A stretch of DNA of 36,599 nucleotides from an uncultured Clostridia bacterium. Lineage in GTDB: Bacteria; Bacillota; Clostridia; RGIG6154. Position numbers and translations under genes: made by a program. Within the stretch, counting starts at the first letter, position 1, and each line of letters opens with the position of its first letter. Shown here piece after piece: positions 7,701-36,599 of the stretch. Location of the stretch: contig CALXJH010000038.1 of the NCBI GenBank assembly GCA_944388555.1, positions 1-36,599 on the forward strand, given 5' to 3'. The notes under the pieces are model-generated. The model did no database searches. It worked only from the letters and a program-made list of their open reading frames with translations, and was not told where the DNA came from.

Positions 7701-10700
7701 TAAACGTAATATCCGATGTTAACGTATCGTTTTCGTAATCCCAGATAACGCCGCCGCTCGCCCAGCCTGCAAAAGCAACGCCCTGCTTTGACGGTGCCAA
7801 AGGTTCTGTTATTTTTTCTCCGTAATTTACCGTTTCTGTTGTATACACCTGTCCGTCTACCACATACGTAACAGTGTGCTGATCGATTTCAACGCCCGTT
7901 ACAGTGATTGTCTGATCAGCTGAAATGTTTTGGAGTGTATAGGTATAGACATTTCCGCTTACGCTCGGCGTGAGCAGTACGCCGTTTGCATATACACGCA
8001 TATTTTCTGCGTTATAGTGCTCTGCAATCGTCACATTAAATGTGTAGTTTCCGCCATAGGCGACATTTGTACTATTTGTCGATGCAACCGTATATCCGCT
8101 GCCGCTCTGCGCCGGTGTTACATGCAGGGTATTTGCTGTGAACTGTGCATATACCGACATGTTTTGATCCAGAATCGTTGACTCATTTATCTCCGTTCCA
8201 CCTGCCGGCTGACTAAACCAGCCGATAAATGTGTAACCTTGTTTTTCAGGCGGATTTGGCAGTATGATTGTATCAGCGTTACCTTCAATGGAAGATTGTG
8301 TATAATATAGTCCTCCGCTGTAGTAAAATTCCGCAGTATAGATTGTCTTTGCGTCTGCTGTTGCCACAAAGCAAACCGGTCCGGTTATCTGATAATTTCC
8401 ATCCGAAATCAACACCGCATTTTCCTGCGGAATCGCTGTGATAACGGGTACGTCATATCCATCAGCGCTTGCTGCGGTAATCTTAACCGTTCCGTTATAC
8501 GCAACCTCGTTTGCACTTATGCTTCCGTTTACACCATCACCCATAACAAGAGAAACTGCATATCTATTTATCTCCCATTGTGCGTAAAGTGTGATATTGG
8601 AATTTAAATTCAATTCGTCTCCTGCACGGTAACTTGTACCTGTTCCGTCGGCTTTTGTATTCCAGCCAGTAAAGGTATAACCTGTACGAGCGGGAATATC
8701 AGAGCTCAATGCCAGCACAGTATCATGCAGTTTTGTTTGATTACCGGGAACCAAAACGGGCTCCGTTGTATTTTCATCATATTCTACGGTATATGTATTA
8801 GCAATCCACTTTGCATAAAGCGTTACCGCACTTGTTATATCGGTTTGGAAATCATATGGTTGATTACAATCTTTATCTATATACCAGCCCCCAAATGTAT
8901 ATCCGTACCTATCTGGTGCAATCGGCTGTGACACCTTTAATCCCGCCTCTACGGTACTAATCAGAAAGATACTGCCGTTGCTGACAAAAGTAACGGTATA
9001 TTGCGGGTTCGGCGTTACGGAAATCGAAATCACCGGCTGCGCTTTAACGGAAGTAACTGTATAAGTAAATACATCTCCGTTTCTCGTGCCATCCAAAGTC
9101 TGCCCGTTTACGTATACAACAGGCACTGCCGTTTTATATCCGTCTTTAAGCGTAACTGCAAAGCTAAAATTCTTTCCGCTTTCAACAGTTGTGTTTTTGG
9201 GAGAAACGCTATAGCCTGTGCCGTCATTGAGTATAATACTGAATGTTTCCTTAGTAACGTTATATAGATTAACACTTGTGTCGGCAGATATATTTTTTAT
9301 ATTATAGCTATAGGTGTTTGCGCTTGTCTGAACAGCTCCAAGCATAATTCCGTTTGCCAAAACAGCCATTTTGTCCGCGCTGTAGCCATCCTCTACAGAT
9401 ACGCTGAACGAAAGCTCTTCATTTCCGCTAACGGTCACATCTTTCTCTGTTGTTAATTCGTTTCCATCATAATATACATGATAACCTTCACCAGAAGAAG
9501 GAAGTGTTACCGTATACGTTTCATTTTTAAGAATGACTGCATACAGATAAACTGTTGAAGTGTTTTCACCGGTAAGGCCTGTTGTGATTTCCTGACCGTC
9601 CCTGTAATAAACTGTATCACTTCCCGAAGCGATGGACCAGCCTTTGAAAGAATATCCCTCCGGAACAGAAATTTCCAGCATATCTGCTTTAGGCAGGGAA
9701 AAACTTTGTCCGTAAACAGCTTCCATTTCGCTGACAATCGCGCCTGCTCCGTTTATAAATGCCACGTTATACTTCACAGGCTCCCACGCCGCATATAAAT
9801 AAAATTCAGAAGAAACGCTGTTCCATGGATTTGTCTTGTAATAGTCCGACAAATTCATATTTTGATCGTATACCAATTCTCCTGCTTTATTTGCCGATGT
9901 ATAATAGCCTGCAAATATAAATCCGTATCTTTTCGGTGCCATTAACCCTTCGTTCGGCAGTATCTGTCCATATTCGACCTCGCAGGAAGGTGTCCCGGAA
10001 GTTCCGCCCTCCGAACAAAACAGGACTGTTGTTTTTGCACTCTCCCAAACTGCATAAAGCGTGATTTCCGTACCCTGAACATCTGCAAGATTCTTTACGA
10101 CCGCACCGTCGACATATGCAATTTCTCCGTTTGGTGCGTACGACCAGCCGGCAAACTGGTTTCCGTCTTTTTGAAAGATATTGCCAGCAAGCGCAAATTC
10201 CTGATCATATGCAGCGGAAGACGATGTCATAATACCGCTGCCGCCGTTTGCATTATATTTAACTGTATAGTTTATCGGCTCCCATACAGCATACAATACA
10301 GCGTCCTCCGCCGACATCAGAATCGTGTCGCCGCCGTGATATATTGTACCTGCAAAATCCGGTGTTTTGCTCCAGCCGCTGAAAATATACCCGGTTCTGT
10401 CAGGCTGAACAGAGGTTATATACGCTGTATTACCGTTTGTGTAAACTTTCATGTCCACAGGCGCATTCATACCGCCGTTTGCATGATATATTACATTTAC
10501 AGAGGACGAATCAGAAACAACAACCGATGAATTGCCTCTTACCTCGAATCTGTATTTGCCATCATCAGGCAAAACCCGGACGCCGTTTATATATACCTTG
10601 GGATTTGCACCGCTTACGGTAAATTCCGCATACTCGCCAAACTTATATCCGTCGGCGTCTATACCGTTAATCGAATAACCACTTGCCGCACTCGTCTTAA

Positions 10701-13536
10701 CTTCATATTGGATTGGTTCGTATACCGCGTAAAGCACCGTATCCCGATCAGGCATCGTATATGGCGATGATAGAATATCGGCAGTTGCTGCCGTTTCATT
10801 TTCTGCCCATCCAAGGAACACATATCCTTCTTTATGCGGCTGCGCGCTGGTAAGCGTAACACTGCTTCCGGCAGCCGGATATGTTACGCCCGCATAGGTA
10901 CTGAAAATCCCGCCGTTTGCATTGTATGAAAGCTCAGGATTTTTCTTCCATACTGCAAAAAGGGTGACAATAGAATTTCCCATTGTAAAACGATCACCCG
11001 GCTGATACTGCGCTGCAGCTGCATTGGATGTTTCCGCCCATCCGATAAATGTATAATTTTGGCGGGTCGGAACGGAAGAACTAAGTGTAATGGTTTCATC
11101 AACGTGCGCTTCCACAGCTGAAGGCGCTCCCTCACCGCCGTTGGCATCATATGTTACAGTATATTTATCTTTTTCAAGCCATGCCGCATATACATATGCT
11201 GTCTTTCCCTGCTCCGTTACAAGACCTGCCGAATAATCTGTATCGGCAATGTACATTGCCCAATTCTGCTCGTCATAAATATTCCAGCCTACAAAATTGT
11301 GATTTGCATAAGAAATTCCCAAGCTTTCGGCAGATGGCAGACGAAGTGCACCATAAGTAACATTGCTTATGGAACCGACATTCTCTCCTCTGCTGTAAAG
11401 CTGGATATTGTATGTAATCGGCGTCCAATATGCGTAAAGGGTAATCCCTTCCGTCATTTTATATGCTGCCGCAGAAGAACAATCCGCATTGTAATACTTC
11501 GTTCCGCCTCCATTCATTTCACTGAAATATCCGCCGAATATATAGCCAGGTTTATCCGGGGCAACGATGACCGGCATCTGGCTGTCATAGGTCGCTGTAA
11601 CCGTTACACCGCCGCTGCCGCCTTGCGCATTTAACATCACATCGTATGTATTGGGTATCCACTTGGCATAAAGTGTAATGCCGCTGTCTGTGTTGAAAGT
11701 TTTGGCAGATGCGCCGTTTGCGTAATAATACTGTACGCCTTCTCCGTTTATATTCTCAAAATATCCGTCAAACGTATAACCCTCTCTGGCAGGAGGCTCA
11801 ATTACAGGCAACGCCTGATCATAAGTTGCAGTGACGCTGTCTGTGCCGCCTATGCCGTTTTGCTTATCGAAAGTAACAGTATGTGCATTGGCAGTCCACG
11901 CCGCATAAAGCGTAAGTCCGTCTGTTTTATCGTATTTTCTGGCAGAAGTTGCATCCGCATTGTAATATTTCACACCGGCTCCGTTTTGCTCTGTATAATA
12001 TCCGCTGAAAGTGTAACCTGTTCGTACCGGTTTTGTGATTACCGGCATATCCTTTTCATAGGTTGCCGTAACCGTCCCGCTTCCTGAACCGCCCTGCGCA
12101 TCAAGGGTGACGGTATACTCCTTCGGCGTCCATTTTGCATAAAGCGTTATATTCCCGGTCTTGTCATAATTTTTTTCTGAATTTCCGTCATACTCATAAT
12201 ACTGCGTCCCTGAACCGTTTCTTTCGGTGTAATATCCTCCGAAAGTATATCCATCGCGGGCCGGAGGCGTAACAGACGGCAAACTTTCAAGATATACCGC
12301 GTCCATACGTTCCGTGCCGCCGCTGCCGCCTTGCATATCCAGCGTAATGGTATAGGTTTGCGGTAGTGCTGCAGCTGTAATTTCGATATTCCCTGTCGTT
12401 GCGGCGGAATTTATCAAAATTTGTCCCCCTGCCGAATCGTAGCTGTAATCGGTTATGACTCTGCCGTCTACTTTTACCGTAATACTACCCGGCAGCTTGT
12501 ATCCGGCGACAGGTGTGAGCGTTGCTGCATATGCCGTTTTATACTGCACGGTCGTATTTCCGGTAAGATTTAAATATGTAAGATTTTTTGCCACATTAAA
12601 AACAGATTTGTATAGAACATTTCCAACAGAAAGCCCTTCGTCTGAATAACTGTACTCGTTTCCCGCATCATCTCTGACTGAAAGTCCTGCTATTTTTTTA
12701 AGCTGCACGTTTGTATTTGTGCCTATATTGGCTAGGGTTGTTGTAAAATATACGGTTTGTCTGTCCGCGGAATAGGTGATGTCATAACTTACGTTTTCTG
12801 CGATTGACAAATCTATGGCCGGATTCTTGCTGACCGTCACAGGTTCGCTAAAATCAATCGCGTATGTAATCTCATCTTCCGGCATCACATAAGCCGGTAA
12901 GCTTGTATCATGATTTACCGCGTAAAGATAAGGAGCAGTTTGAACTGCCGGGGTCGTTTTGTCAAAGAAAATCATACTAAACTCATACATACCAAAGAAG
13001 GCTCCGCCATTACCCAAGGTTTCCCTGCCCTCATACACAATATAAGAGGTACCGGCAGGAATGGGCGACTCCCCTATCGTTAAAGTCTCCGTTCTGCCGC
13101 TAATGGAATATTTTGAATAACGATCATTGTAGGTTACTAAAACAGCGCCTGCGGCATTATAACAAATAATATTTAAATTTGCTGTAAGGTTTCTCGAACC
13201 CTGTGCATAAAATTTACCCGAAGCCGACAATGTTAATTCTCCGTTGTTTGCACGGATGACATCCGCATCGGTCAGAGTCACTCTCTGTCTTACAGCAATA
13301 TTTTCCCCTGTTCTTGCGCCGATTATATATCGGTCATCCTTGCCCAGTCCCAGATATTTGCCATAAGAACAGTTTTCACGCTCCCAATAATCGTTTGATG
13401 TAGGATATGGGTTCAGTAATACATTGGTACCGTAACCATAAACGCTTGCCTCTGCCGCAGCCGGCAGCACCATTGATGGTATGAACGACACAACCATACA
13501 TAGTACCGTAAATAGTGATATCATTCTTTGCTTCAT
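4759..13536 (-). CDS. Giant (2925 aa) secreted, SLH-anchored cell-surface protein with many Listeria-Bacteroides-type (Flg_new-like) repeats
   Basis: - RBS GAGGAGAAG upstream of the ATG.
- Signal peptide MKQRMISLFTVLCMVVSFIPSMVLPAAAEA.
- A roughly 190-aa N-terminal beta-rich domain.
- About 19 repeats ending in an (L/V)YA.W motif (GYTF.GW...G..Y....TLYAKW), by my count.
- About 7 interspersed Ig-like modules.
- A Gly/Ser linker, SGGSSGGGSGSSSTGGGNSGGSSGTGS.
- Three C-terminal SLH motifs (FDDVKQDDWYY..., FEDVDAKAYYAEAV..., FNNISAYAIPSVQY...). Confidence 0.95.
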   Translation of the reverse strand: MKQRMISLFTVLCMVVSFIPSMVLPAAAEASVYGYGTNVLLNPYPTSNDYWERENCSYGKYLGLGKDDRYIIGARTGENIAVRQRVTLTDADVIRANNGELTLSASGKFYAQGSRNLTANLNIICYNAAGAVLVTYNDRYSKYSISGRTETLTIGESPIPAGTSYIVYEGRETLGNGGAFFGMYEFSMIFFDKTTPAVQTAPYLYAVNHDTSLPAYVMPEDEITYAIDFSEPVTVSKNPAIDLSIAENVSYDITYSADRQTVYFTTTLANIGTNTNVQLKKIAGLSVRDDAGNEYSYSDEGLSVGNVLYKSVFNVAKNLTYLNLTGNTTVQYKTAYAATLTPVAGYKLPGSITVKVDGRVITDYSYDSAGGQILINSAATTGNIEITAAALPQTYTITLDMQGGSGGTERMDAVYLESLPSVTPPARDGYTFGGYYTERNGSGTQYYEYDGNSEKNYDKTGNITLYAKWTPKEYTVTLDAQGGSGSGTVTATYEKDMPVITKPVRTGYTFSGYYTEQNGAGVKYYNADATSARKYDKTDGLTLYAAWTANAHTVTFDKQNGIGGTDSVTATYDQALPVIEPPAREGYTFDGYFENINGEGVQYYYANGASAKTFNTDSGITLYAKWIPNTYDVMLNAQGGSGGVTVTATYDSQMPVIVAPDKPGYIFGGYFSEMNGGGTKYYNADCSSAAAYKMTEGITLYAYWTPITYNIQLYSRGENVGSISNVTYGALRLPSAESLGISYANHNFVGWNIYDEQNWAMYIADTDYSAGLVTEQGKTAYVYAAWLEKDKYTVTYDANGGEGAPSAVEAHVDETITLSSSVPTRQNYTFIGWAETSNAAAAQYQPGDRFTMGNSIVTLFAVWKKNPELSYNANGGIFSTYAGVTYPAAGSSVTLTSAQPHKEGYVFLGWAENETAATADILSSPYTMPDRDTVLYAVYEPIQYEVKTSAASGYSINGIDADGYKFGEYAEFTVSGANPKVYINGVRVLPDDGKYRFEVRGNSSVVVSDSSSVNVIYHANGGMNAPVDMKVYTNGNTAYITSVQPDRTGYIFSGWSKTPDFAGTIYHGGDTILMSAEDAVLYAVWEPINYTVKYNANGGSGIMTSSSAAYDQEFALAGNIFQKDGNQFAGWSYAPNGEIAYVDGAVVKNLADVQGTEITLYAVWESAKTTVLFCSEGGTSGTPSCEVEYGQILPNEGLMAPKRYGFIFAGYYTSANKAGELVYDQNMNLSDYYKTNPWNSVSSEFYLYAAWEPVKYNVAFINGAGAIVSEMEAVYGQSFSLPKADMLEISVPEGYSFKGWSIASGSDTVYYRDGQEITTGLTGENTSTVYLYAVILKNETYTVTLPSSGEGYHVYYDGNELTTEKDVTVSGNEELSFSVSVEDGYSADKMAVLANGIMLGAVQTSANTYSYNIKNISADTSVNLYNVTKETFSIILNDGTGYSVSPKNTTVESGKNFSFAVTLKDGYKTAVPVVYVNGQTLDGTRNGDVFTYTVTSVKAQPVISISVTPNPQYTVTFVSNGSIFLISTVEAGLKVSQPIAPDRYGYTFGGWYIDKDCNQPYDFQTDITSAVTLYAKWIANTYTVEYDENTTEPVLVPGNQTKLHDTVLALSSDIPARTGYTFTGWNTKADGTGTSYRAGDELNLNSNITLYAQWEINRYAVSLVMGDGVNGSISANEVAYNGTVKITAASADGYDVPVITAIPQENAVLISDGNYQITGPVCFVATADAKTIYTAEFYYSGGLYYTQSSIEGNADTIILPNPPEKQGYTFIGWFSQPAGGTEINESTILDQNMSVYAQFTANTLHVTPAQSGSGYTVASTNSTNVAYGGNYTFNVTIAEHYNAENMRVYANGVLLTPSVSGNVYTYTLQNISADQTITVTGVEIDQHTVTYVVDGQVYTTETVNYGEKITEPLAPSKQGVAFAGWASGGVIWDYENDTLTSDITFTAQWSDNVYTVTPAQSGSGYTVASTDSTNVAYGGNYTFNVTIAEHYNAENMRVYANGVLLTPSVSGNVYTYTLQNISADQTITVTGVEIDQHTVTYVVDGQVYRENNVVYGSKLTLPANPSKEGMRFAGWAYETSIWDFDNDIVECDMTLIAQWEILTYHVTLPSSNAAYTVTGNGDMVQYGGEYSFAVAVASGYNMDNIIILSNGTELSPVSIDGDVIYCTISNITENITVTIRGIGIDTYAITYHSAVTEYVANMPEGQIKEHGGSIILSNLEPQRYGYTFEGWAAKADGEVIYNPGAEYTVDEDLDLYAVWVPMTYTITYETNGGMINSGAVNAYVYSVGAVLPTDVTKDGFDFIGWYDNEFFEGVRVTTITPTDSGNKKYYANYSVSDVIPNSYEGEYDGNAHILEYALVNELTVQTYQWYFKATGTTSFVPVESDSALFYMVRNVSDSGEYYCYVEALQNGYVVRFNTGTATVHITKKPLSIKANDAEKCYDALPLTSGEFAFTDGTNPVSGHIVDVTMTAASTITNAGTTENAVQDVAVYDMNHNDVTANYEIKHTPGTLTVTKLPLTIEGNTVSKYKNTSVTESELYKISGTLNSEKLSLDNVSLAITNSKGQTFNSLEDIITEIGTYTVVITFNGITGDSCENYIGSGSIISNITVKARPSGGSSGGGSGSSSTGGGNSGGSSGTGSENTASNYVISFDTNGAEKIENVTVVENQILNEPEKPDREGYIFEGWYTDKALTTEYNFSSKVTKSFTLYAKWTKNITDNDDDSGNQSGDEPSDEDNLAWENPFDDVKQDDWYYDDVCYAVENALFNGTTNKTFDPNGIITRAMLVTVLYRAEGNPEVTGTVTFEDVDAKAYYAEAVVWGQQNGIIKGYSETEFAPDQNIIREQIAAIIHRYAKYKGIDTTDKEGTNILSYIDFNNISAYAIPSVQYVVGSDLMKGKSTTTFNPNDNATRAEIAAILHRLNNTNKE
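7393..8122 (-). repeat. Intragenic tandem duplication with a 450-bp period; two copies of about 280 bp at about 94 percent identity
   Basis: 7393-7672 aligns with 7843-8122 with about 16 mismatches by hand alignment. The encoded 92-aa modules (TPAQSGSGYTVAST(N/D)STNVAYGG...HTVTYVVDGQVY) differ at one residue. Confidence 0.9.
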
Positions 13537-19369: not shown

Positions 19370-20209
19370 TTAAAATATGCGCTTCATTACATTACTTCTA
19401 TTTAGTTTTAAAATAGAAATCGTTGCCGCTCCAGAGCGATTTTCTACATTGCTGTTATAAGTGAGCGTAAAATTTGTCTGCGCAGGCACATAAATGATGA
19501 TTGCGTTTGCGCCCCAAGCACTTGATGCGTTTGTATTTGTTTTAAAATATATGCCGTTCTCTAAATGCGCAGTTCCATTATATGAAGGTGTAATTTGCAT
19601 ATAGCCGGCAGTGTCTAAAACTGTTGAGACGCTGTAATCTATAAAATAATATCCAGGTTGTAAAACAATTTCTGTATTATTTGTAAGAACAATATTTCCA
19701 CTTGGGTCATTTATATCTGTTATAAAAGGTATTGATTGGGCATTTGTAAACCGAATCTCAAAAATTCCAAAAGACGCAAAGGTTTCTATGCCCGGTTCTC
19801 CCTGCGGGCCTTGCGGCCCCTGTTCTCCTTGGGGGCCCTGCGGGCCTTGTTCTCCTTGGGGGCCCTGCGGACCTTGTTCTCCCTGGGGACCTTGCGGCCC
19901 CGGTTCTCCCTGCGGGCCTCGCGGCCCCTGTTCTCCTTGGGGACCTTGTGGTCCCTGTTCTCCCTGGGGACCTTGTGGTCCCTGTTCTCCTTGGGGGCCC
20001 TGCGGGCCTTGTTCTCCCTGGGGACCTTGTGGTCCCTGTTCTCCCTGGGGGCCCTGCGGGCCTTGCGGTCCCTGTTCCCCCTGTGGACCTTGCGGCCCTT
20101 GACAGCAACAGCATTTCTTATTTGTGCTGCCGTCTATATTGCAAAACCATATTGGTTTGTTAAATAACTTTACTTTTTTCATTTTATTATTTATACACTC
20201 CATTACCAT
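19370..20209 (-). CDS. Collagen-like triple-helix repeat protein with a BclA-type (C1q/TNF-like) C-terminal domain
   Basis: 34 uninterrupted G-X-Y triplets (GPQGPQGEQ units) preceded by KKCCCC. A 139-aa beta-rich C-terminal domain follows, with the pattern of exosporium BclA C-terminal domains. The ATG at 20182 (MKKVKLF) is an alternative start. Confidence 0.85.
19793..20098 (-). repeat. 27-nt (9-aa) tandem repeat array encoding the collagen-like region
   Basis: GGNCCNCAR/GGNGARCAR units are visible directly in the sequence. The region is GC-rich relative to its surroundings, and all other frames are open as an artefact. Confidence 0.9.
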
Positions 20210-27365: not shown

Positions 27366-27758
27366 TTAATAAAACTTTTTCTCGTCTTTTAACATATTCA
27401 GCTGATTCATAATTTCTCCGAAACGCTGGAAATGTACAATCTCACGTTCCCGTAAAAAACGCAGCGGATCAATAACATCCGGATCATCTGCAAGATCCAA
27501 TAAATATTCATACGTCGATCTTGCTTTTTGTTCCGCTGCCATATCTTCTGCGATATCCGTAATGGGATCACCTTTTGATTGAAGTGCCAGCGCATTAAAC
27601 GGCATTCCGCCAGGTGACATCGGATATACACCTAAGCCATGATCTACATACATAGGTCCGTATTCACGCATTATCTCTGCATCAGAAGCGCCCCTTAAAA
27701 GCTGTCTTACCATTGTGCCGACAATTTCCATATGTGCCAATTCTTCTGTACCATCACC
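27366..27758 (-). pseudogene. cotJC: 3' segment (C-terminal ~130 codons) of a split cotJC-type manganese catalase gene
   Basis: Reads GDGTEE-LAHMEIVGTMV...KGDPITDIAEDMAAEQKARSTYEYLL...LRFLREREIVHFQRF...KDEKKFY. It has no plausible native start. The frame is closed by TAA at 27759-27761, immediately upstream of the conserved GTEE. It matches the C-terminal two thirds of CotJC/Mn catalases, including three metal ligands. Confidence 0.85.
27741..27752. repeat. Left copy of a 12-bp direct repeat (ttcttcTgtacc); candidate att core of the intervening element
   Basis: Identical at 11 of 12 positions to 31601-31612. Both copies encode G-T-E-E on the minus strand. Confidence 0.7.
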
Positions 27759-27805
27759 TTATCATTTATCAAGTCTAAAACGCCTTGTTAAAAACAGTTT
27801 ATTTG

Positions 27806-27840
27806 TAAAACAAAAGCAGCAGGAAACTCAATTCCTGCCG
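27806..27840 (-). terminator. Terminator of the beta-helix gene, just inside the left end of the element
   Basis: Stem gcaggaa (27819-27825) pairs with ttcctgc (27832-27838). The minus strand continues with TTTTGTTTTA. Confidence 0.65.
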
Positions 27841-27865
27841 CCGTTATATTTGCTGTATTGGGCGA

Positions 27866-29485
27866 TTATTTACTCTGTATTTCTGTTTCTTTGCAGTGAT
27901 CCGTTTTAATCATATCCCCTGTGCAGTTTGTCATTTGATTGTTTTGAAAAATCACATGCTCGGTATTATTTAAGGAAGCAAGTAAACTGTCGCAATTTTT
28001 AAACTCATTTCCCGAAATTTCCACTTTCCCGTGAAAATATTTGTCAACTTCTGTACGTTCTCTTGGCTGCATTTCAATCACCGCAGTTCCCCACAGCGCG
28101 TATTTGCAATGATCAAATGTATTGCCTGTAATCAAAACATCTTTTGTTCCGCCCGACTCATACCAGTACTTTCCGTCGCTTTCAAACTTAATAGCACTTC
28201 CGGGCGTCTGAAATAAATTATTGCGTATAACGGTCTTTCCGGCGGAGGCTAAAAGCATGCCGCGCGCACGGTTATTCCGAACAATGCAATTTTCAAAGCA
28301 CACCTCCGGCTTCCAGGAAATCTCATCTGCCACATCCCCTACTTTTACAGTTTCTGTAGTACCATCCAGCACAACCTCCATATAATCCAGATTGATTTTC
28401 CGCACTTCCTGTACAGTAAACTGATGGTAAGGAATCAATGTCTCGGCATTGGAAATCTGCAAAATTGCATCTTTGTCTACAATTTGTATTCCTCTTGCCT
28501 CTGGATGCATAAACTTCAATATCAGCGACCGTTCTGTTTTATCTACAATTTTTAAATAAATGCTATGTACATTTAAAGCGTCATCCAACTGCCCTTCAAA
28601 ATAGCAATCCCGAATACTGATCTTTCCTTTGCAATGCACAAAATGCGTTCCGTCGGCATTGATGGAATAATATCTTCCGTTCCGTGTTCTGGTTGAAAAA
28701 TGATCCACAGAAATTGTATCACTGTTCTGTGCAATGATCCCCATGCCGATTCCGCTGTATAGTGTAACATTTGAAATCGTTGTATTTTCGCTTTGGTTGA
28801 TGAATATATTGGATACACATCTTGTTCTTGACATAAAAACCAGCTTGTTTCCCGGCTGTATTTTCCTGTCTACCCCTTTACCCTCGGCCCGGATTGTTCC
28901 CTTACCTGTTTCAGAAAAATCAATCTTACTGTCCGGTTTATCAAAAAAAGTATCCGCGGCATGTGGTACCAACCACCCGGTTTTCTTATCCACCTCATCA
29001 AAAATACAGAGTTTTTCATGCACACCCTGCCTATCTCCCACATATAAATCTGCGCCGTATACATAATACGGCAAATTGGTTTCCATGCGCATTTCAAACC
29101 AGTTATCCCCTGACGCTACAACCTCTGCTTGTGCATTCAGTGTATTTAAGGATGAAAAAGTGAAATTTTTTACCGTCACGTTTTTAGATTTGGATATAGC
29201 TACCGGGAACAAAATATCATCGAAAATAAATTCGCTTTCGCCGCCGTCTAAAATAAAATTCTCAAAGTTCTCCAACAAAAAACAAATACGCTTTAATCCC
29301 GGATCCGAATGATTCGAAACAGAAAAAAAGGTTTCGCTTGCTTTTTCACTTTTTACATGATATACGCCCTTTTCAAAAACCAAGCCATCTTCGCCCGTTT
29401 TTTTACAATATTCCAGTGCATTTAAAATATTAAATGCCACATCTTTTGTTTTTTCAAACTGTTTGTAATTTACCATTTTACTCAC
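27866..29485 (-). CDS. Right-handed parallel beta-helix repeat protein (pectate-lyase fold, possible glycosidase), with no signal peptide
   Basis: 539 aa. Repeated beta-helix turns are present, including CIVRNNRARGMLLAS, VIRNNLF, LITGNTF and ISGNEF. The N-terminus is hydrophilic. Confidence 0.8.
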   Translation of the reverse strand: MSKMVNYKQFEKTKDVAFNILNALEYCKKTGEDGLVFEKGVYHVKSEKASETFFSVSNHSDPGLKRICFLLENFENFILDGGESEFIFDDILFPVAISKSKNVTVKNFTFSSLNTLNAQAEVVASGDNWFEMRMETNLPYYVYGADLYVGDRQGVHEKLCIFDEVDKKTGWLVPHAADTFFDKPDSKIDFSETGKGTIRAEGKGVDRKIQPGNKLVFMSRTRCVSNIFINQSENTTISNVTLYSGIGMGIIAQNSDTISVDHFSTRTRNGRYYSINADGTHFVHCKGKISIRDCYFEGQLDDALNVHSIYLKIVDKTERSLILKFMHPEARGIQIVDKDAILQISNAETLIPYHQFTVQEVRKINLDYMEVVLDGTTETVKVGDVADEISWKPEVCFENCIVRNNRARGMLLASAGKTVIRNNLFQTPGSAIKFESDGKYWYESGGTKDVLITGNTFDHCKYALWGTAVIEMQPRERTEVDKYFHGKVEISGNEFKNCDSLLASLNNTEHVIFQNNQMTNCTGDMIKTDHCKETEIQSK

Positions 29486-29558
29486 TCTCTCATCTAAAAA
29501 TGTGATTACACCTAAATCCGTTCTAAATTATAGCAGAAATTAGCTTTGAATGCAACCA

Positions 29559-29741
29559 CTATATCTCATCTTCCGAAAGTTCTACCCCATTTTCTATATA
29601 AATTTTTGATATGGCTTCTAAAATTTCTTTTATTTTATCCGCAGACTTAATACTATAAGCATCCGAGAGAACGATGCGCGTATGTCCAAGCACAAAGCTT
29701 TGCACCACATGCTCGGTTTCGCATGAAAAAAATTTTTCCAT
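29559..29741 (-). CDS. 60-aa hypothetical protein, divergent from the recombinase gene (candidate accessory or directionality factor)
   Basis: ATG 9 nt after GGGGAGG. It is co-directional with the beta-helix gene and has an acidic C-terminus. No family was recognised with confidence. Confidence 0.6.
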   Translation of the reverse strand: MEKFFSCETEHVVQSFVLGHTRIVLSDAYSIKSADKIKEILEAISKIYIENGVELSEDEI

Positions 29742-29757
29742 TATTCTATTCCTCCCC

Positions 29758-29785
29758 GTATTTCGTTTTGATTTCTGTCATACAT
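29758..29785 (+). promoter_or_regulatory. Sigma-E-like (mother-cell) promoter motif upstream of recombinase A; speculative
   Basis: GTATTT (29758-29763), a 15-nt spacer, and CATACAT (29779-29785), compared with the remembered B. subtilis SigE consensus ATATT...CATACA-T. This is a motif match only. Confidence 0.25.
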
Positions 29786-29869
29786 CCTTTCTATTCCGAC
29801 CTTCACGTTCTAAAGAAAATCCCTTTGTGCATAAACAATAAACAGATACTATTTCAAGGAGATTATCTT

Positions 29870-31462
29870 ATGAATTATTGTATATATCTTCGCAAATCGC
29901 GCGCCGACGCAGAAGCAGAAACACGCGGTGAAGGAGAAACGCTTTCAAAACATGAACATATTCTGCTTGCACTTGCCAAGCGTATGCAGGTAGATATTGA
30001 TAAAATATATAAAGAAATTGTTTCGGGAGAAACCATTGCGGCAAGGCCAGTTGTACAACAATTGCTATCCGATGTTGAGAAAAGAAAATGGGATGGCGTC
30101 TTTGTTATGGAAATTGAGCGTCTTGCACGCGGAGATACTATGGACCAAGGCTTCATGGCACAGGTCTTTAAATATTCGGGAACAAAAATTATTACACCTA
30201 TAAAAATATATGATCCAGAAAACCCATTTGATGAAGAGTATTTTGAATTTGGACTTTTTATGTCCAGAAGAGAATTTAAAACAATAAACCGCCGCTTACA
30301 ATTAGGCCGCCAAAGCTCTGCCCAGGAAGGAAATTTCTTAGGCAGCATTCCGCCGTACGGATATCAGAAAATAAAAGCAAAACAAGGTAAAGGCTTTACT
30401 TTAAAACCTATACCGCAGGAAGCAGAAATCATTAAGCAGATTTATATAAGCTATGCCATAGGCTGCATTCAAGAGGATGGTACACGTGTTCCGATTGGCA
30501 TTTCTAAAATTGCAAAAAACTTAAATTCCCTGCATATTAAACCTAAAAAGGGGGAATTTTGGAGTGCTTCTTCGGTTCGAGACATTCTAATCAATCCTGT
30601 CTATATCGGTAAAATTCGTTGGAATTTCCGCCCTGTAAAAAAAATCATGAACGATGGAATTCTCCGGCAAACGCGTCCCCGGAATGATAAAAATCATTAT
30701 ATTTTAAACCACGGAAAGCATGTGGCTATTATTTCAGAAGCGCTGTTTATGGAGGCGCAAAAAAGGATGCAGCAGAATCCGCCGCATCCTGTTGCCGGAC
30801 ATGCCACTTTAAAAAATCCACTGTCCGGGATTGTGATTTGTTCAAAATGCGGAAGAACTATGCAAAGACGCCCTTCCGGTAAAAATGGCAAAAGCACTTT
30901 AATGTGCCCTGAGCCTTCCTGTAATAATATCAGCGTTTCACTGGAAGAAGTAGAGAAAAAAATATTAGACGCACTTAGAGCTGCATTACAAAGCTATTCA
31001 CTCAATTCTCAAAATTCCAACCGCGATCTATCATTCCAAACGAATGCGATACAAACCGAAATCAAATTTACAGAAAAGCAGCTTAAGCGTCTGCACCAAC
31101 GCCTCGACAGGCTCTATACCCTGCTGGAGGAAAACATTTATACAAAAGAAATTTTCTTAACGCGATCGTTTGCACTCAAACAAGCGATAGAGAAAAACAC
31201 TGCCGCGCTAAGAAAATTAAACGTACAATTAAACAACCAAATACATGCATCTAAGACCCCACCTCCGTCTATAGACGCTGTTCCTATTTTAAAATTTTAT
31301 AACAAACTGCCGTCCGCGCAGGCAAAAAACGAGTTGTTAAAACAAATTTTAGAAAAAGTTGTCTATACCAAAACAAAAAACGGACAGTGCAAAAACACAA
31401 GTCCGGATGATTTTGAAATTATATTATATCCTAAAATTCCATTTCATAAGGACAAAACTTAA
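29870..31462 (+). CDS. Large serine recombinase (SprA/YokA-like subgroup)
   Basis: Starts at the ATG at 29870, 8 nt after GGAG; the ORF-track extension to 29723 is rejected. The N-terminus YLRKSRADAE carries the catalytic Ser. Conserved blocks: VMEIERLARGD, IITPIKIYDPENPFDEEYFEFGLFMSRREF and PPYGYQK. A Cys-rich zinc-ribbon block (CSKCG...CPEPSCNN) and a coiled coil follow. Confidence 0.92.
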   Translation: MNYCIYLRKSRADAEAETRGEGETLSKHEHILLALAKRMQVDIDKIYKEIVSGETIAARPVVQQLLSDVEKRKWDGVFVMEIERLARGDTMDQGFMAQVFKYSGTKIITPIKIYDPENPFDEEYFEFGLFMSRREFKTINRRLQLGRQSSAQEGNFLGSIPPYGYQKIKAKQGKGFTLKPIPQEAEIIKQIYISYAIGCIQEDGTRVPIGISKIAKNLNSLHIKPKKGEFWSASSVRDILINPVYIGKIRWNFRPVKKIMNDGILRQTRPRNDKNHYILNHGKHVAIISEALFMEAQKRMQQNPPHPVAGHATLKNPLSGIVICSKCGRTMQRRPSGKNGKSTLMCPEPSCNNISVSLEEVEKKILDALRAALQSYSLNSQNSNRDLSFQTNAIQTEIKFTEKQLKRLHQRLDRLYTLLEENIYTKEIFLTRSFALKQAIEKNTAALRKLNVQLNNQIHASKTPPPSIDAVPILKFYNKLPSAQAKNELLKQILEKVVYTKTKNGQCKNTSPDDFEIILYPKIPFHKDKT

Positions 31463-31600
31463 AATCTGAAACCACAGCTATTAAGAATGTTTTATTTTAT
31501 TTTTTCGTTCTTTATAGCTGCGTTATTTTTTTACGGCAACCATACATACTCTACAAACTATTTTTGCTCACTGTTTTTAAGCGTATCCTATGTGTACGGA

Positions 31601-31612
31601 TTCTTCGGTACC
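31601..31612. repeat. Right copy of the 12-bp direct repeat (ttcttcGgtacc)
   Basis: See 27741-27752. Confidence 0.7.
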
Positions 31613-31726
31613 AATATCATTTAATACGCCTTTTCCTTCTTTCAGCGGCATTGCATATCTTTGTGATAAATAACGCAATGACGCGCTCAACTCGCCATCC
31701 GGACCACCGAATGGAAACTGTTTGAG
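31601..31726 (-). pseudogene. cotJC: Middle segment (42 codons) of the split cotJC-type manganese catalase gene
   Basis: Hand translation gives LKQFPFGGPDGELSASLRYLSQRYAMPLKEGKGVLNDIGTEE. For comparison, B. subtilis CotJC reads YLIEQYGGADGELAAALRYLNQRYTIPDKVIGLLTDIGTEE (from memory). After GTEE the frame degenerates (SVHIGYA, then a stop at 31577-31579). Upstream it is cut by the TGA at 31727-31729. Confidence 0.8.
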
Positions 31727-33139
31727 TCATTGGTGGAAAATTAAATGAACCTCTTTACAATCATTTTTCTGATTAAGGGTGATTTCTTTAAAAACAATGC
31801 GTGCAAGTCGGTTTTTTTCCGTATTATCCGCATCACCTTTCAAAATTTGCAGGATACTTTGCGGATGTTCTGAAATATCTGTGCTGTGGTTATCGTTTTG
31901 TACGTATTTTCTTACTGTTTTCAAATCTTTTGCTGCATGCTTTTTAGCCTGCTTGTATTCGTCAAGCGTATAAATGCCGGCTTCATATGCTTCCCGTGCA
32001 CGCTGTAAACGTTTATTCACAGCACAATGCATGTCGGCACCTATCGAAGATCTAAAGTTAATTTGATTTTCTTGTTCAAATAAATATTTTTCTGTTGTAT
32101 TATAAATTTCAGACAGAGCATTCAGAACAATTTTTTCTATATTCTTTGCTGCAATATATCCTACTCCGGAGCACAAGCCTCTTGCTTTCTTGGAACAGCC
32201 AAAATACCCGCCCTGGTTGGAAAGCACAGCGTTACAGATACCACATCTTGCAATACCGACCAGCCAGTGGGATACCTTGCATTTCACAGAAGGCGCATAT
32301 TTTTTAGACTCTTGTTTTAGTCTTTTTAATCTCAACTGCGCAGCATTCCAGGTATCTGTATCTATAATCGGTGCGTGTGTGCCCTGCGCAATTATGGCTG
32401 TTGGAAGGTCATAATTTCTCGAAAGACTGCCTGTCGGATTCCAGCGCATTTTTCCTATATATACCGGATTATGCAGCCAATAAACAATCGTACGGCTTTC
32501 AATTTTGTTTCCTCTGTGGGTTGTAATTCCCCATTCATTAAGTTCCTTTGCAATTTTTAAATATCCGTTTCCTTTTATAAAATCGCTGAAGACTTTTTTT
32601 ATAACAAAAGCTTCATAGGGCTGTACAATATACTTGCCGTCTTTTACTGTATATCCAAACGGAGCACCCGACAACACGCCTCCCCTCTTTGCCTTTTCCG
32701 TCATGCCTCTTTTGACTTCTTCGGCAAGATTCAAACTGTAATATTCATCCATTGCTTCTATAATTGCTTCAAACAGCACCGACATTTTATCGTCCCCTAC
32801 AGGTTCGCTTACAGAAATTACATCAATGCCATATTCTTTCCGGAGCATAGATTTATATACGACGCTGTCCTCACGGCTTCTTGCAAAGCGGCTGTATTTC
32901 CAAACCAGAATCATATCAAATGGTTTTGGTTTGGTTTTAGCCATCGCAATCATTTTATTGAAGGCAGTGCGCCGCTTGGTATTTCGGCCGCTGATTCCCT
33001 CATCTATAAAAATTAGATGTTCATCTAAAACAATATGATTGGAAAATGCATATTTCTTTAATGCCGACAGCTGACTATCCGGACTAAACTCCGCCTGATC
33101 TTCCGTAGATACGCGTATATACCCTGCGGCTCTTTTCAA
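31727..33139 (-). CDS. Large serine recombinase (SpoIVCA/TnpX-like)
   Basis: TTG start after GGAGGGG. The N-terminus GYIRVSTEDQ carries the catalytic Ser. Further blocks: WKYSRFARSREDSVVYKSML, a recombinase domain and a Cys-rich zinc-ribbon block (CGICN...CSKKARGLCS). The stop codon abuts the catalase middle segment in the same frame. Confidence 0.92.
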   Translation of the reverse strand: MKRAAGYIRVSTEDQAEFSPDSQLSALKKYAFSNHIVLDEHLIFIDEGISGRNTKRRTAFNKMIAMAKTKPKPFDMILVWKYSRFARSREDSVVYKSMLRKEYGIDVISVSEPVGDDKMSVLFEAIIEAMDEYYSLNLAEEVKRGMTEKAKRGGVLSGAPFGYTVKDGKYIVQPYEAFVIKKVFSDFIKGNGYLKIAKELNEWGITTHRGNKIESRTIVYWLHNPVYIGKMRWNPTGSLSRNYDLPTAIIAQGTHAPIIDTDTWNAAQLRLKRLKQESKKYAPSVKCKVSHWLVGIARCGICNAVLSNQGGYFGCSKKARGLCSGVGYIAAKNIEKIVLNALSEIYNTTEKYLFEQENQINFRSSIGADMHCAVNKRLQRAREAYEAGIYTLDEYKQAKKHAAKDLKTVRKYVQNDNHSTDISEHPQSILQILKGDADNTEKNRLARIVFKEITLNQKNDCKEVHLIFHQ

Positions 33140-33324
33140 TCCAACCCCTCCACGCTATCAGGACTCTGTCGCTTGACTTTTCTTCCGTAATAGCTTTCGA
33201 GGATTCTTATTTCCGATTGTATTTTCCACTTGTTTAATTGCGATTCTGTGTCAAATGCTTCCTCAAATCGTTTTTGCAGCCCTCCTTTACACGATATGTA
33301 ATTTATTACATTACAGGCATTCAT
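33136..33324 (-). CDS. 62-aa hypothetical protein translationally coupled to recombinase B
   Basis: ATG at 33324, 7 nt after GGAGGTG. Its TGA stop overlaps the recombinase TTG start (TTGA). The ORF-track start at 33363 lacks an RBS. Confidence 0.6.
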   Translation of the reverse strand: MNACNVINYISCKGGLQKRFEEAFDTESQLNKWKIQSEIRILESYYGRKVKRQSPDSVEGLD

Positions 33325-33343
33325 ATAAATCACCTCCGATATT

Positions 33344-33372
33344 ATTGTATGGATAAATGGCAAAAAAATAAC
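33344..33372 (-). promoter_or_regulatory. Sigma-E-like promoter motif upstream of the small-ORF/recombinase B unit; speculative
   Basis: The minus strand reads GTTATTT (33372-33366), a 14-nt spacer, and CATACAAT (33351-33344). This is a motif match only, and the -35 overlaps the rfbB terminator. Confidence 0.25.
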
Positions 33373-33399
33373 GCCTGTGAAAACACAAACGTTATTTTT
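33364..33399 (-). terminator. Rho-independent terminator of the rfb genes
   Basis: aaaaataacg (33364-33373) pairs with cgttattttt (33390-33399). The minus strand ends in a T-run. Confidence 0.7.
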
Positions 33400-33407
33400 A
33401 CTGTTAT

Positions 33408-34430
33408 TTATAAATCACATCGGTCGCCGTACATTTTTTCATAATATTGTACATATTCGCCGCTGATTATCTTTTCCCACCAGGATCGGTTATCTAAGTA
33501 CCACTGCACTGTTTTTACTATGCCGTCCTCAAATTTTGTTTCCGGCAGCCATCCTAAGGTGCGATGTATTTTTGTAGGGTCAATGGCATAGCGCATGTCG
33601 TGTCCTTTTCGGTCTGCGACATATGTAATCAGGCTTTCGGGTTTATCAAGCAATTTTAAGATTATTTTAACAATCTCAATATTAGATTTTTCATTATGAC
33701 CGCCGATATTGTAAACTTCTCCGGCTTTTCCTTGATGCAGAATCAAATCAATTGCCTTGCAGTGATCTTCAACATATAGCCAGTCCCGTACATTCAGCCC
33801 ATTGCCATACACGGGCAAAGGTTTATCGTTTAAAGCATTTACAATCATCAAAGGAATCAGCTTTTCAGGAAAATGATAGGGGCCATAGTTATTCGAACAG
33901 CGTGAAATAGTAACCGGCAAGCCGTATGTTCTGCCATAAGCCTGTACCAGCAAATCTGCACTGGCTTTAGACGCACTGTATGGACTTGACGTGTGGATGG
34001 GCGTTTCCTCGGTAAAAAACAGGTCCGGCTGATCTAAGGGCAAATCACCATACACTTCATCGGTCGATACCTGATGATACCTTTGTATACCATATTTACG
34101 GCATGCATCCATCAAAACCTGCGTTCCCATGATATTGGTCAGAAGAAAAACTTCCGGATTTTCAATGGAACGGTCCACATGGCTTTCCGCTGCAAAATTT
34201 ACTATCATATCGGGCTTTTCTTCTTCGAACAGCTTATAAACTGCCTTTCTGTCGGCAATATCCCCTTTAATAAATTTAATCTTATCCATCACAGGCTGCA
34301 ATGTTTCAATATTTCCGGCATAGGTCAGCTTATCGAGTACAATCAAACGATCATTCGGATATTTTTTCACCATATAGTGAACAAAGTTTCCGCCTATAAA
34401 CCCTGCGCCGCCCGTTATTACAATCTTCAT
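33408..34430 (-). CDS. rfbB: dTDP-glucose 4,6-dehydratase
   Basis: [21 protein letters not shown] Rossmann motif, the [11 protein letters not shown] catalytic YxxxK, and a length of 340 aa. Confidence 0.95.
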
Positions 34431-34433
34431 AAA

Positions 34434-35297
34434 CTATTCCTCCAACAATGAAAGCACATACTTTCCATAATCCGTCATACTTAACTCTTCTCCGATTTTC
34501 TTAAGCTGAGATTGATTGATAAATCCTCTGCGCCACGCAATTTCCTCAATGCAGGAAACATATACTCCCTGCATTTCCTGTATTGTTTGCACAAACTCGC
34601 TCGCTTTTATCATGGAAGCGGGCGTTCCAGTGTCCAGCCAAACCATTCCTCTTTGCATGATTTGCACATGAAGTTTTCCTTTTTCTAAATATGCATTGTT
34701 TACCGCTGTAATTTCTAACTCACCGCGCGCGGACGGCTGAATTTGTTTTGCGATCTCAACAACCGTATTATCATAAAAATACAAACCCGGAACAGCGTAA
34801 TTAGACTTGGGGTTTTTCGGTTTTTCTTCTAAAGAAATTACATTTCTGTCCGCGTCAAACGCTACAACGCCAAAAGATGTTGGATTTTTCACATAATAGC
34901 CGAATATAACTGCGCCATCCAGATTTTTCTTTGCATTTATAAGAATTTTTGTAAAATCTTTACCATAAAAAATATTATCTCCCAGAATAAGGCACACACT
35001 ATCGTCTCCAATAAAGTGCTGGCCAATAATAAAAGCCTGTGCAAGCCCTTTGGGCTGTTCCTGTATTGCATAGGAAATCGATATACCCAGTTTGGAGCCA
35101 TCTCCCAAAAGGCGCTGATAAACGGAGATATCCTCCGGCGTTGATATGATAAGAATCTCCCGGATACCTGCCAGCATCAGGCTGGAAAGCGGATAATAAA
35201 TCATAGGTTTATCATAAATAGGAAGCAGCTGCTTTGATACTGCTTTCGTCATAGGATAAAGACGGGTCCCCCGCCCGCCCGCTAATATAATACCTTT
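34434..35297 (-). CDS. rfbA: Glucose-1-phosphate thymidylyltransferase
   Basis: [39 protein letters not shown]. Start taken at the ATG at 35297, 6 nt after GAGGTG, rather than at 35330. Confidence 0.95.
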
Positions 35298-35499
35298 CAT
35301 TTGCGGCACCTCATCTATTCTATAATACATTTTTCTGCTGTATGCAAAACATAAATTCAGCTTCTGTCTTAAACAAATCCATCCCCCTGGTCTTAATGCG
35401 GAAGTGACTGCATAATGGCGTAGGATAAACGCAAGCGTTTATTATTCTGAGCAGCTGTATCCTGGATTTACTTACATTACGCCAAAATAATACTGTTAT

Positions 35500-36599
35500 T
35501 TATATCGTTATTTCACGCAATATTAGATCACAAATTCTGTCTACATCCTCAAGCGCCAGATCCGCATATAAAGGGAGGGTAAGCACTTGCTCGGAAGCTT
35601 TTTTTGCAATAGGGGTATCTTGTATTTTAAAAAGGTCTCTATAGCATTCAAATTCATTGGTGAGCGGATAGAAATATTTTCTTGCGTATATACCGGACTG
35701 CATTAAATTTTCAGCAACTTGATTTCTGGATATGCCAAGTACTTTTTCGTCAAACAATACCGGATAATACGCCCAGTTGGAAATAACCTGCTCCTGCGGC
35801 TGATTAAGTTTTAGCCCTGGAATACCTGCAAGACGCTCTGTATAGCGTTGGGATGCTCTTTTTCGTTTGGCGATTTCTTCATCTACATACCGCAGATTAC
35901 ACAGTCCCATTGCCGCCTGAAATTCGTTCATTTTTGCATTTCCAGCAATTTCAGGATAATGTTCACTATCTGCCATTCCGAAATTTTTTTGCATACGCAA
36001 TTTTGCTGTAAAGTTTTCATCCGAATAAGCAACGCATCCGCCTTCTATCGTATTAAACACTTTCGTGGCATGAAATGAAAACATAGACGCATCTCCAAAC
36101 GAAGCAATGCCTTTGTCTCCGATACGCACACCAAAGGCATGCGCAGCATCATAAATCACTTTAAGACCATACTGATCTGCAATTTTTTGAATTGCGTGCA
36201 CATCACACACATTACCATATACATGAACAGGAACAATGGCACATGTTTTTTCAGTAATCAAAGGTTCTATTTTAGATGGATCCAAGGTATAGTTTTCAGG
36301 GTCAATATCACAAAAAACGGGTGTCAGTCCGCATCTTACGATTGCTTGTGTCGTTGAAGCAAAAGTAAACGGAGTTGTTATAACCTCGCCTTTAAGATCC
36401 ATTGCCGCAATCGCAGCTTCCAAAGCCAAATGACCGTTTGTAAATAGCGACACATTCGATACAGACAGATAATCACATAACCTGCGTTGTAATTCCGCAT
36501 GCTTCTGTAACATATTGGAAAGCCAGAGACTTTCCCACAATTCTTTATTTTCGTTTATGTATTCGTGAAATGAGGGCATTGAGGAACGGGTTATATTGA
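35500..36599 (-). CDS. DegT/DnrJ/EryC1/StrS-family PLP-dependent sugar aminotransferase; the 5' end probably lies beyond the window
   Basis: SFHATKVFNTIEGG contains the PLP lysine, and the overall pattern is typical (NGHLALEAAI, VPVHVYGN). The reading frame stays open to the window edge. Confidence 0.9.
   Translation of the reverse strand, partial: NITRSSMPSFHEYINENKELWESLWLSNMLQKHAELQRRLCDYLSVSNVSLFTNGHLALEAAIAAMDLKGEVITTPFTFASTTQAIVRCGLTPVFCDIDPENYTLDPSKIEPLITEKTCAIVPVHVYGNVCDVHAIQKIADQYGLKVIYDAAHAFGVRIGDKGIASFGDASMFSFHATKVFNTIEGGCVAYSDENFTAKLRMQKNFGMADSEHYPEIAGNAKMNEFQAAMGLCNLRYVDEEIAKRKRASQRYTERLAGIPGLKLNQPQEQVISNWAYYPVLFDEKVLGISRNQVAENLMQSGIYARKYFYPLTNEFECYRDLFKIQDTPIAKKASEQVLTLPLYADLALEDVDRICDLILREITI

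Follow-up and report, generated by a model that had tools for sequence, protein, structure and literature searches.

Evidence for two independent serine recombinase elements in one sporulation gene: a doubly cut cotJC in an uncultured Clostridia bacterium

Why should a fragment of a catalase gene, only about a hundred base pairs long, lie between two large serine recombinase genes that point at each other? This question is raised by a contig from an uncultured gut Clostridia bacterium (GCA_944388555.1, contig CALXJH010000038.1), whose 36,599 nt, analysed here as a whole, are called the window. The split gene is cotJC, which encodes a manganese catalase of the spore coat, and we consider it very probable that two independent recombinase elements, A and B, have been inserted into it at two different sites. 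The fuller model, in which the gene is rebuilt by two excisions during sporulation, appears fairly likely to us. A first-pass annotation, made from the letters of the window, had already proposed a second independent element in the same gene and the need for two excisions; our analysis supports this, on the B side by comparison with relatives, with phage attachment sites (attP) and with one whole prophage (L174). As judged from the sequences, only element A is fully demonstrable in the window alone and element B is supported by comparison.

The catalase pieces in the window are the following:

27366..27752, minus strand: C-terminal piece of cotJC (Mn catalase), GTEELAHMEIV...KKFY and stop, its host-derived part running from about 27742 downward.
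31603..31704, minus strand: host-derived internal cotJC piece of about 34 codons, GPDGEL...DIGTE (Pfam; boundaries placed by attP symmetry).

The C-terminal piece (27369..27752, minus strand) corresponds to CotJC residues 61-189 (tblastn, E=3e-38) and is 86% identical to the nearest intact homologue, P0001, over residues 62-189. Read on the minus strand, 31463..31729 gives LKQFPFGGPDGELSASLRYLSQRYAMPLKEGKGVLNDIGTEESVHIGYA, with a stop on either side. Its 49 residues match the Pfam family Mn_catalase (E=4.4e-10, 39.5 bits, cut-off 27) and correspond to CotJC residues 29-68 (tblastn, E=5e-11), the internal catalase piece being 31589..31711 (minus strand). The catalase-like similarity of the internal segment, for which an alignment to a hidden Markov model had been called for, is real, and the first observation as a whole lies far beyond chance. 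Both pieces are free of stops and frameshifts, together they are 84-85% identical to intact 189-amino-acid (aa) homologues, the metal-ligand motifs (GE..., TEE.AH) are intact in the joined pieces, and the invariant residues E35, E64, E65 and H68 are all kept. The gene is identified as cotJC by the match of the pieces to Mn_catalase and CotJC, and by its position after cotJA-cotJB in relatives. The internal segment had been described as 126 bp or 42 codons long. An internal gene piece does exist, but with crossovers at 31704/31705 and 31602/31603, as suggested by attP symmetry, its host-derived part would be about 102 bp (34 codons). Catalase homology begins at FGG (31711) and not at LKQF as had been assumed; the LKQFP codons belong to an arm, ACTCAAACAGTT, of the attachment site of element B.

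Both ends of element A lie in the window, and the features on this side are:

27743..31602, no strand assigned: element A, a minimal intervening element of 3,860 bp with both junctions in the window.
27740..27746, minus strand: left junction core of A, GAAGAAT, with the putative crossover at GA 27742-27743 and the attP-type arm GTACCATCACCTTATCA alongside.
31600..31606, minus strand: right junction core of A, GAAGAAT, with the putative crossover at GA 31602-31603, adjoining the arm GTATCCTATGTGTAC.
29870..31462, plus strand: large serine recombinase A, 530 aa, catalytic-serine motif YLRKSRAD, SprA/SpoIVCA-type (Pfam Resolvase, Recombinase, Zn_ribbon_recom).
27866..29485, minus strand: cargo of element A, a 539-aa protein that combines a right-handed beta-helix and a GLAA-B beta-barrel domain (Pfam Beta_helix 1.6e-13, Beta-barrel_GLAA-B_II 1e-9).
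29559..29741, minus strand: 60-aa open reading frame (ORF) divergent from that of recombinase A; its position alone makes it a candidate directionality factor.

The sequences ...aatgatattGGTACCGAAGAATccgtacacatagg... and ...aaggtgatGGTACAGAAGAATtggcacatatgg... at the two junctions have GGTAC(C/A)GAAGAAT in common; joined, they give ...NDIGTEELAHMEIVG..., which is identical to the intact 189-aa homologues at this place. Precise excision of element A restores ...DIGTEELAHMEIV in frame, and the joined sequence ...NDIGTEELAHMEIV... is as in intact homologues. By the symmetry centre of the family attP, the crossover falls on the GA in the second Glu codon, which puts element A at 27743..31602. Element boundaries are not visible from base composition, since the GC content is 0.37-0.42 throughout the window, and a repeat finder run on the window returned no informative long repeats.

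The attachment sites of element A can be compared with those of phages. Viral contigs were surveyed separately for the recombinase A family, the recombinase B family and catalase N-termini; for recombinase A, matches required a five-sequence alignment, and the scan with the single sequence gave no match. Relatives of recombinase A (45-53% identical) are frequent in viral contigs of 30-60 kb. In free phage genomes of this family a palindromic attP with the arms TGATAACATCATGGTAC and GTACCAT..GTTATCA is located directly 3' of the recombinase stop, and its centre duplicates the catalase codons for T-E-E-L. In integrated contigs the attP arm continues into catalase (L258, integrated, versus L236 with free attP), and the arms and centre of element A in the window conform to the free attP sites. 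Recombinase A matches the SPbeta integrase YokA/SprA over its full length (PDB 9dxh, E=6e-51) and is 40-47% identical to the integrases of the Paenibacillus and Clostridium phages phiIBB_P123, phiCT453A and PhiS63.

Recombinase A, the 60-aa ORF and the beta-helix protein make up the entire gene content of element A, which contains no phage genes. The longest ORF of recombinase A begins 49 codons upstream (29723..29869, plus strand) of the conserved MNYCIYLRKSRAD start that is used by all homologues, and this extension is probably not translated. A homologue of the beta-helix protein (31% identical) is encoded just upstream of a B-type recombinase in L026 (7938..9473); the protein thus seems to travel with cotJC-targeting elements. 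The 60-aa ORF has no Pfam hit and only a weak SAP-like match (E=0.002), and no conserved relatives of it were found beside recombinase A homologues.

On the other side of the internal piece, the window contains one end of element B:

31727..33139, minus strand: large serine recombinase B, 470 aa, catalytic-serine motif YIRVSTEDQ (Pfam Resolvase, Recombinase, Zn_ribbon_recom).
31705..31729, minus strand: proximal B junction, an attP-derived half-site, TGACTCAAACAGTTTCCATTCGG, that includes the recombinase stop; putative crossover at GG 31704-31705 (second Gly codon).
33136..33324, minus strand: 62-aa small protein immediately upstream of recombinase B, a candidate directionality factor.
33343..33372, minus strand: promoter-like sequence GTTATTT-N14-CATACAATA, situated upstream of the small ORF and conserved in relatives.
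33408..36579, minus strand: visible cargo of B, comprising rmlB (33408..34430), rmlA (34434..35330) and a DegT-type aminotransferase gene (35500..36579) (Pfam); the element, the larger of the two, runs past the contig end.

The first description of recombinase B holds: it has 470 aa and the three domains of large serine recombinases, it converges with recombinase A on the same segment, it belongs to a different group (the two are only about 26% identical), and its TGA (31727-31729) stands directly upstream of the internal catalase piece, in the same frame and direction. It is unique in its cluster, and the nearest protein found in a protein search is 59-60% identical. The LKQFP codons and the recombinase stop are part of one attachment-site arm of B, which lies beside the stop and whose reverse complement, AACTGTTTGAGT, is found at the other junction in relatives, in loci of both orientations. 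This position of the stop within the recombinase's own arm (TGACTCAAACAGTT), in frame with catalase, is shared by the two closest relatives of the same type, L010 and L012. In more distant relatives the recombinase stop is out of frame with catalase. The in-frame TGA as a sign of a fusion protein was therefore rejected, the stop being a part of the arm.

The visible 4.9 kb of element B contain, in this order, the recombinase, the 62-aa ORF, a terminator-like hairpin, rmlB, rmlA and the DegT-type aminotransferase gene. In another locus, L007 (1..1218), rmlA, rmlB, the small ORF and the recombinase adjoin the opposite, N-terminal half of cotJC, and rmlA-rmlB are 77% identical to those in the window. 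Because the rml genes accompany the recombinase there, the sugar-nucleotide genes are cargo of B and not host flank. We take rmlB, rmlA and DegT to be the same enzyme types as those encoded by the spore polysaccharide (sps) genes of B. subtilis. A tiny element B ending near 33400 was also considered and rejected, since no catalase sequence follows beyond and in L007 the rml genes go along with the recombinase. Neither element A nor the visible part of B was found to contain phage structural, lysis or replication genes.

The small protein upstream of recombinase B belongs to a family of 52-63 aa with the motif W..E.RALSEYYNKKIK; 32 loci, the window among them, have a gene of this family directly upstream of a B-type recombinase. 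The family has 346 database members, and neither a Pfam family nor a given name was found for it. Its structure is predicted to be helical with moderate confidence (AlphaFold, pLDDT 66). In 27 of 33 related loci a box of the form GTTATTT-N14/15-CATA(A/C)AAT stands at a fixed distance from the ATG of the small ORF.

Is the position of element B in the window a chance event? For comparison we used the 80 best relatives of recombinase B (44-63% identical, one genome per species), and in 73 of these species-representative genomes a B-family recombinase is found at the same cotJC codons, YGGPDG, in either orientation. Thirty-one loci are oriented as in the window, with recombinase, stop and then catalase from (Y)GGPDGE. 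The other 42 are mirror images, in which cotJB and catalase residues 1 to about 31-36 are followed by a converging recombinase. Free viral contigs of the B family carry a palindromic attP directly after the recombinase stop, the centre of which mimics GGxGGxCCxGAC, and integrated forms of the same phages run on into catalase (free versus integrated: L114 versus L105/L112; L123/L165 versus L125; L134/L139/L150 versus L132/L136). The polarity of insertion tracks how the GG/CC centre is oriented with respect to the recombinase gene. All 43 catalase N-termini found in viral contigs are truncated, at residues 31-35 or 62-69.

Both ends of a B-type insertion can be seen in L174, where a whole degenerate prophage of 9.5 kb lies between cotJB-catalase(1-32) and catalase(26-189). 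It carries genes for an endolysin, a repressor-like helix-turn-helix (HTH) protein and the recombinase as well as an IS200/IS605 insertion; GGTGGCCC is common to its attL and attR, and QYGGPDG is restored when the two are joined. This prophage has itself been invaded, at 6743..8352, by an IS200/IS605 pair (Y1 transposase and an OrfB/TnpB-like protein). Elsewhere, an identical element with type III restriction-modification genes, HTH proteins, the small ORF and the recombinase (L289-L293) is located beside cotJA-cotJB in at least three host backgrounds, which shows that such elements move between hosts and always land in cotJC.

Two side observations concern the same site. One metagenome-assembled genome, SUG3072 (JAXEIW01), has two different B-family recombinases in its bin, one by an internal catalase piece and the other mirror-oriented by cotJB and the N-terminal piece (L006 and L027); possible readings are tandem elements, a single element with recombinases at both ends, or a mixture of strains. 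In addition, many database proteins named manganese catalase with lengths of 141-163 aa (P0005, P0007, P0011, P0012, P0015, P0017, P0029, P0016 and P0033) begin at or just after (Y)GGPDGE; they seem to result from gene calling on the distal half of an interrupted cotJC and not to be true short proteins.

The double cut is not confined to the window. Among the 31 species genomes with the same orientation, 12 show a second break at catalase residues 62-69 after the B-type recombinase (L006, L010, L049, L055, L060, L061, L070, L071, L073, L076, L078 and L080), and so do five further viral contigs on which the sequence runs on beyond the break (L109, L112, L116, L121, L122 and L135, minus one near-duplicate). 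In L055 a relative of recombinase A (48% identical) converges on the internal piece as in the window, and in L060, L061, L078, L112 and L116 a different serine recombinase of 550-570 aa occupies the second-cut position. The next piece of catalase follows 3.9 kb (L071) and 9 kb (L135) beyond the second cut. The comparison with genomes carrying no, one or two insertions, which the first-pass annotation had proposed, yielded single-cut loci, double-cut loci and intact homologues.

These loci also bear on the possibility that the window is an assembly chimera, in which strains carrying A and strains carrying B were joined via the shared 100-bp piece. The contig comes from a metagenome, the shared segment is short, and element A is polymorphic among close relatives (L121 versus L125), all of which would fit. 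Against this stand the many independent assemblies with the same layout, among them the complete 2.7-Mb single-contig chromosome L078 (OY760624.1), in which a B-type recombinase accompanied by phage-like replication genes faces a second integrase across 105 bp of catalase; and in L071 and L135 the contig reaches past the second element to the gene piece that follows. We give a chimera only the slightest chance.

The second-cut junctions that we examined (L006, L010, L060, L061, L071, L076, L078, L080 and L100) fall into sub-sites a few bases apart, DIG/, DIGTE/E and DIGTEG (slash, break), which are used by different recombinase lineages. With breaks at several nearby positions, the conserved DIGTEE block is a cluster of attachment sites. 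Overall, the sequences indicate that at least three serine recombinase lineages use the cotJC sites, with insertion in both orientations. In an alignment of 64 intact catalases, sites B and A match the two most conserved N-terminal blocks, Q28-E35 and D60-H68. The metal ligands of manganese catalase belong to these blocks. In L125 the internal piece is nearly identical to that of the double-cut L121, yet DIGTEELGHLEM is intact and an element at site A is missing; this contrast shows that the A-site element was gained or precisely lost among close relatives.

Is the small piece between the two elements still under selection? Pairs of double-cut loci with shared junction types were compared by counts of synonymous (pS) and nonsynonymous (pN) differences and a binomial test. 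In the internal piece pS was 0.38-0.68 and pN 0-0.05, and at least 11 of 12 to 20 changes were synonymous (binomial P between about 5e-6 and 4e-8). In these pairs the B recombinases on the flank had a pS of 0.35-0.71 and, being themselves constrained, a pN/pS of 0.1-0.2; for the recombinases on the A side pS was 0.13-0.33. This pattern fits a long co-residence of element and host with purifying selection on a fragment of 100 bp, a selection that can be understood only if the gene is rebuilt.

This selection also bears on the main rival scenario, namely that two ordinary prophages or mobile elements have inserted into a dispensable gene and have no developmental role. The conserved motifs would then be no more than a reliable landing site, and the gene would be off unless an element is induced or cured. 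Much in the data would be expected under this scenario: recombinases of both families abound in viral contigs of 30-60 kb that carry free attP, the same element is found in different hosts, L125 lacks the A element of the near-identical L121, and C. difficile has several CotJC-like catalase genes (PMC11222575). What it does not explain well is the strong purifying selection on the 100-bp piece between flanking recombinases that are equally diverged. In addition, minimal elements (A in the window, the 3.9-kb L071 and the degenerate 9.5-kb L174) still have their recombinases and arms intact, and the CATA-type box upstream of the module of small ORF and recombinase is conserved. Taken together, we regard two plain insertions as rather unlikely.

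The explanation that we prefer is a developmental one. Two unrelated large serine recombinase elements have very probably inserted into one cotJC at attachment sites about 100 bp apart, site B in the YGGPDG codons and site A in the DIGTEE codons. With the help of a directionality factor of its own, each recombinase would bring about recombination between its attL and attR at the central dinucleotide (GG for B, GA for A); each element would leave as a circle with the reading frame rejoined, and catalase would be made only after both excisions. The cotJ operon of B. subtilis is expressed in the mother cell, and we assume the same for cotJC here. Excision would presumably take place in the mother cell during sporulation, like that of skin, SPbeta and gin. 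The 62-aa protein would act as the directionality factor of B. The CATAcaaT-like -10 boxes are typical of mother-cell sigma-E and sigma-K promoters, and the box upstream of the small ORF is suggestive of such a promoter. This genome should further contain the distal end of B and the N-terminal piece, at a junction that would read cotJA-cotJB-catalase(1-30), ...CARTAYGG, followed by an arm of the GATGGNAACTGTTTGAGT type and the cargo of B.

Several observations weigh against this explanation. The window contains neither cotJA nor cotJB nor the N-terminal catalase piece, and the second B arm was searched for in the window and is absent there, the arm occurring once. In the box upstream of the small ORF a TAAAAT of the sigma-A type can be read as well, which leaves the cognate sigma factor ambiguous, and in a generic sigma-70 scan sites were no more frequent than chance. 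The AlphaFold model of the small protein has no PDB match and no recognisable fold or family, and among the neighbours of recombinase A homologues there was no conserved candidate for a directionality factor of A. In a PDB sequence search, the SprB (YotN) moiety of the SprA-SprB fusion chain was matched by neither small ORF. Part of the purifying selection could predate the insertions if elements re-insert often, and co-divergence could be mimicked in this way. Finally, cotJC is dispensable in B. subtilis; together with the several CotJC-like genes of C. difficile mentioned above, this means that a dead copy could be tolerated.

The missing parts might also mean that element B is a remnant here, the N-terminal codons and perhaps the distal end of B having been deleted and a pseudogene left behind. 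The first-pass annotation had noted about 23 missing N-terminal codons; a search of all frames confirmed their absence from the window, but about 30 codons are missing, not 23. This N-terminal piece, cotJB and the second att arm all lack in a contig that is not extendable, as a remnant would predict. When metagenomes were scanned for GGNGGNNNNRATKGNAAYTGTTTGAGT, the pattern expected at the distal junction, four loci only were returned, all of the opposite orientation, and a closer relative or a longer contig of this locus was not present in the searched collections. Look-ups by exact sequence with the window's DegT protein and with recombinase B (with either start residue) gave no match, and the window proteins are the sole members of their database clusters. 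The state of the locus argues against decay: recombinase B, the small ORF, the promoter box and the proximal arm are intact, the retained catalase pieces have no stops or frameshifts and the C-terminal one is still 86% identical to an intact homologue, and in related genomes the N-terminal piece is still present with cotJB next to the element. We therefore think it very unlikely that B is a remnant, and the developmental explanation remains our preferred one.

Gene reconstitution by excision is well known in spore formers, where it has so far been described as one element per gene (skin, SPbeta). Closest in kind is gin in gerE of Bacillus cereus ATCC 10987, with the GirC recombinase and the 42-aa GirX (PMC5595907). 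It is likewise a small non-phage element in a short sporulation gene, with a serine recombinase, imperfect inverted repeats, a short core and a tiny direction-setting protein, and is comparable to element A (3.86 kb, no phage genes) and to the module of small ORF and recombinase in B. The target differs (gerE versus cotJC), the recombinases described here are not GirC orthologues, two elements share one gene, and the system here is known from its sequence alone. SPbeta in spsM (SprA/SprB) and skin in sigK (SpoIVCA) are related through recombinase A, which is a full-length homologue of SprA; PhiS63, the integrase of which is 40% identical to recombinase A, is the phage form of the sigK intervening element. 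In contrast to SPbeta and skin, element A is located at the DIGTEE codons of cotJC, its phage genes are lost, and no SprB-like partner was found for it. Other known cases are skinCd in C. difficile with the sigma-E-dependent factor CD1234, and the yin element in yabG.

Interruption of cotJC as such is not new. According to bioRxiv 10.1101/2021.11.22.469490, Abe et al. 2013 already listed it as an interruption target, and a skin-like element was reported in cotJC of Laceyella sacchari (bioRxiv 10.1101/2022.02.25.481979). These reports share the target gene with our locus; their elements are phage- or transposon-like, and the mentions concern single insertions. Two elements in one sporulation gene, two cotJC hot-spots, both orientations and the small-protein family were not described in the open-access and bioRxiv literature that we searched, and thus the recurrent double cut at two conserved cotJC motifs looks undescribed. 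The statement that a gene interrupted by two elements is not a described norm stands for this literature, but the arrangement is common in nature and multiply interrupted genes have been described in cyanobacteria. Heterocyst-forming cyanobacteria have multiply interrupted nif genes (PMC4874684), and in Calothrix sp. NIES-4101 nifB, nifH, nifD and nifK occur as 13 parts (PMC11249958). There too, a gene for a terminally differentiated cell is split by several elements, each with its own recombinase. Phylum, developmental programme and element families differ, and excision was demonstrated experimentally there and is inferred here. The arrangement in cotJC is real and recurrent, but it extends a well-known principle.

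We tentatively suggest, as a possibility somewhat short of even, that cotJC in many gut Clostridia might be a two-lock developmental switch, with two independently acquired elements at the metal-ligand motifs, each with its own recombinase and directionality factor and both excised in the mother cell. It would be the Firmicute counterpart of cyanobacterial nif, kept by selection rather than being two accidental prophages. A single small sporulation gene can hold two independent elements, this is frequent in uncultured gut Clostridia, and both attachment hot-spots coincide exactly with the metal-ligand motifs of the enzyme. The elements provide a natural set of orthogonal pairs of integrase and att site of practical interest for genome engineering, for which the uncharacterised small-protein family, as a candidate for directionality factors, would be useful as well. 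For annotation, many calls of a truncated manganese catalase in metagenome genomes are split genes and not pseudogenes.

Two further genes of the window may be mentioned. A surface protein of 2,925 aa with 16 Listeria-Bacteroides repeat domains and three SLH domains is encoded at 4759..13536 (minus strand). The gene at 19370..20209 (minus strand) encodes a collagen-like protein in which GPQGE triplet repeats are spaced by 27 bp; it may belong to the spore surface and be of the exosporium type.

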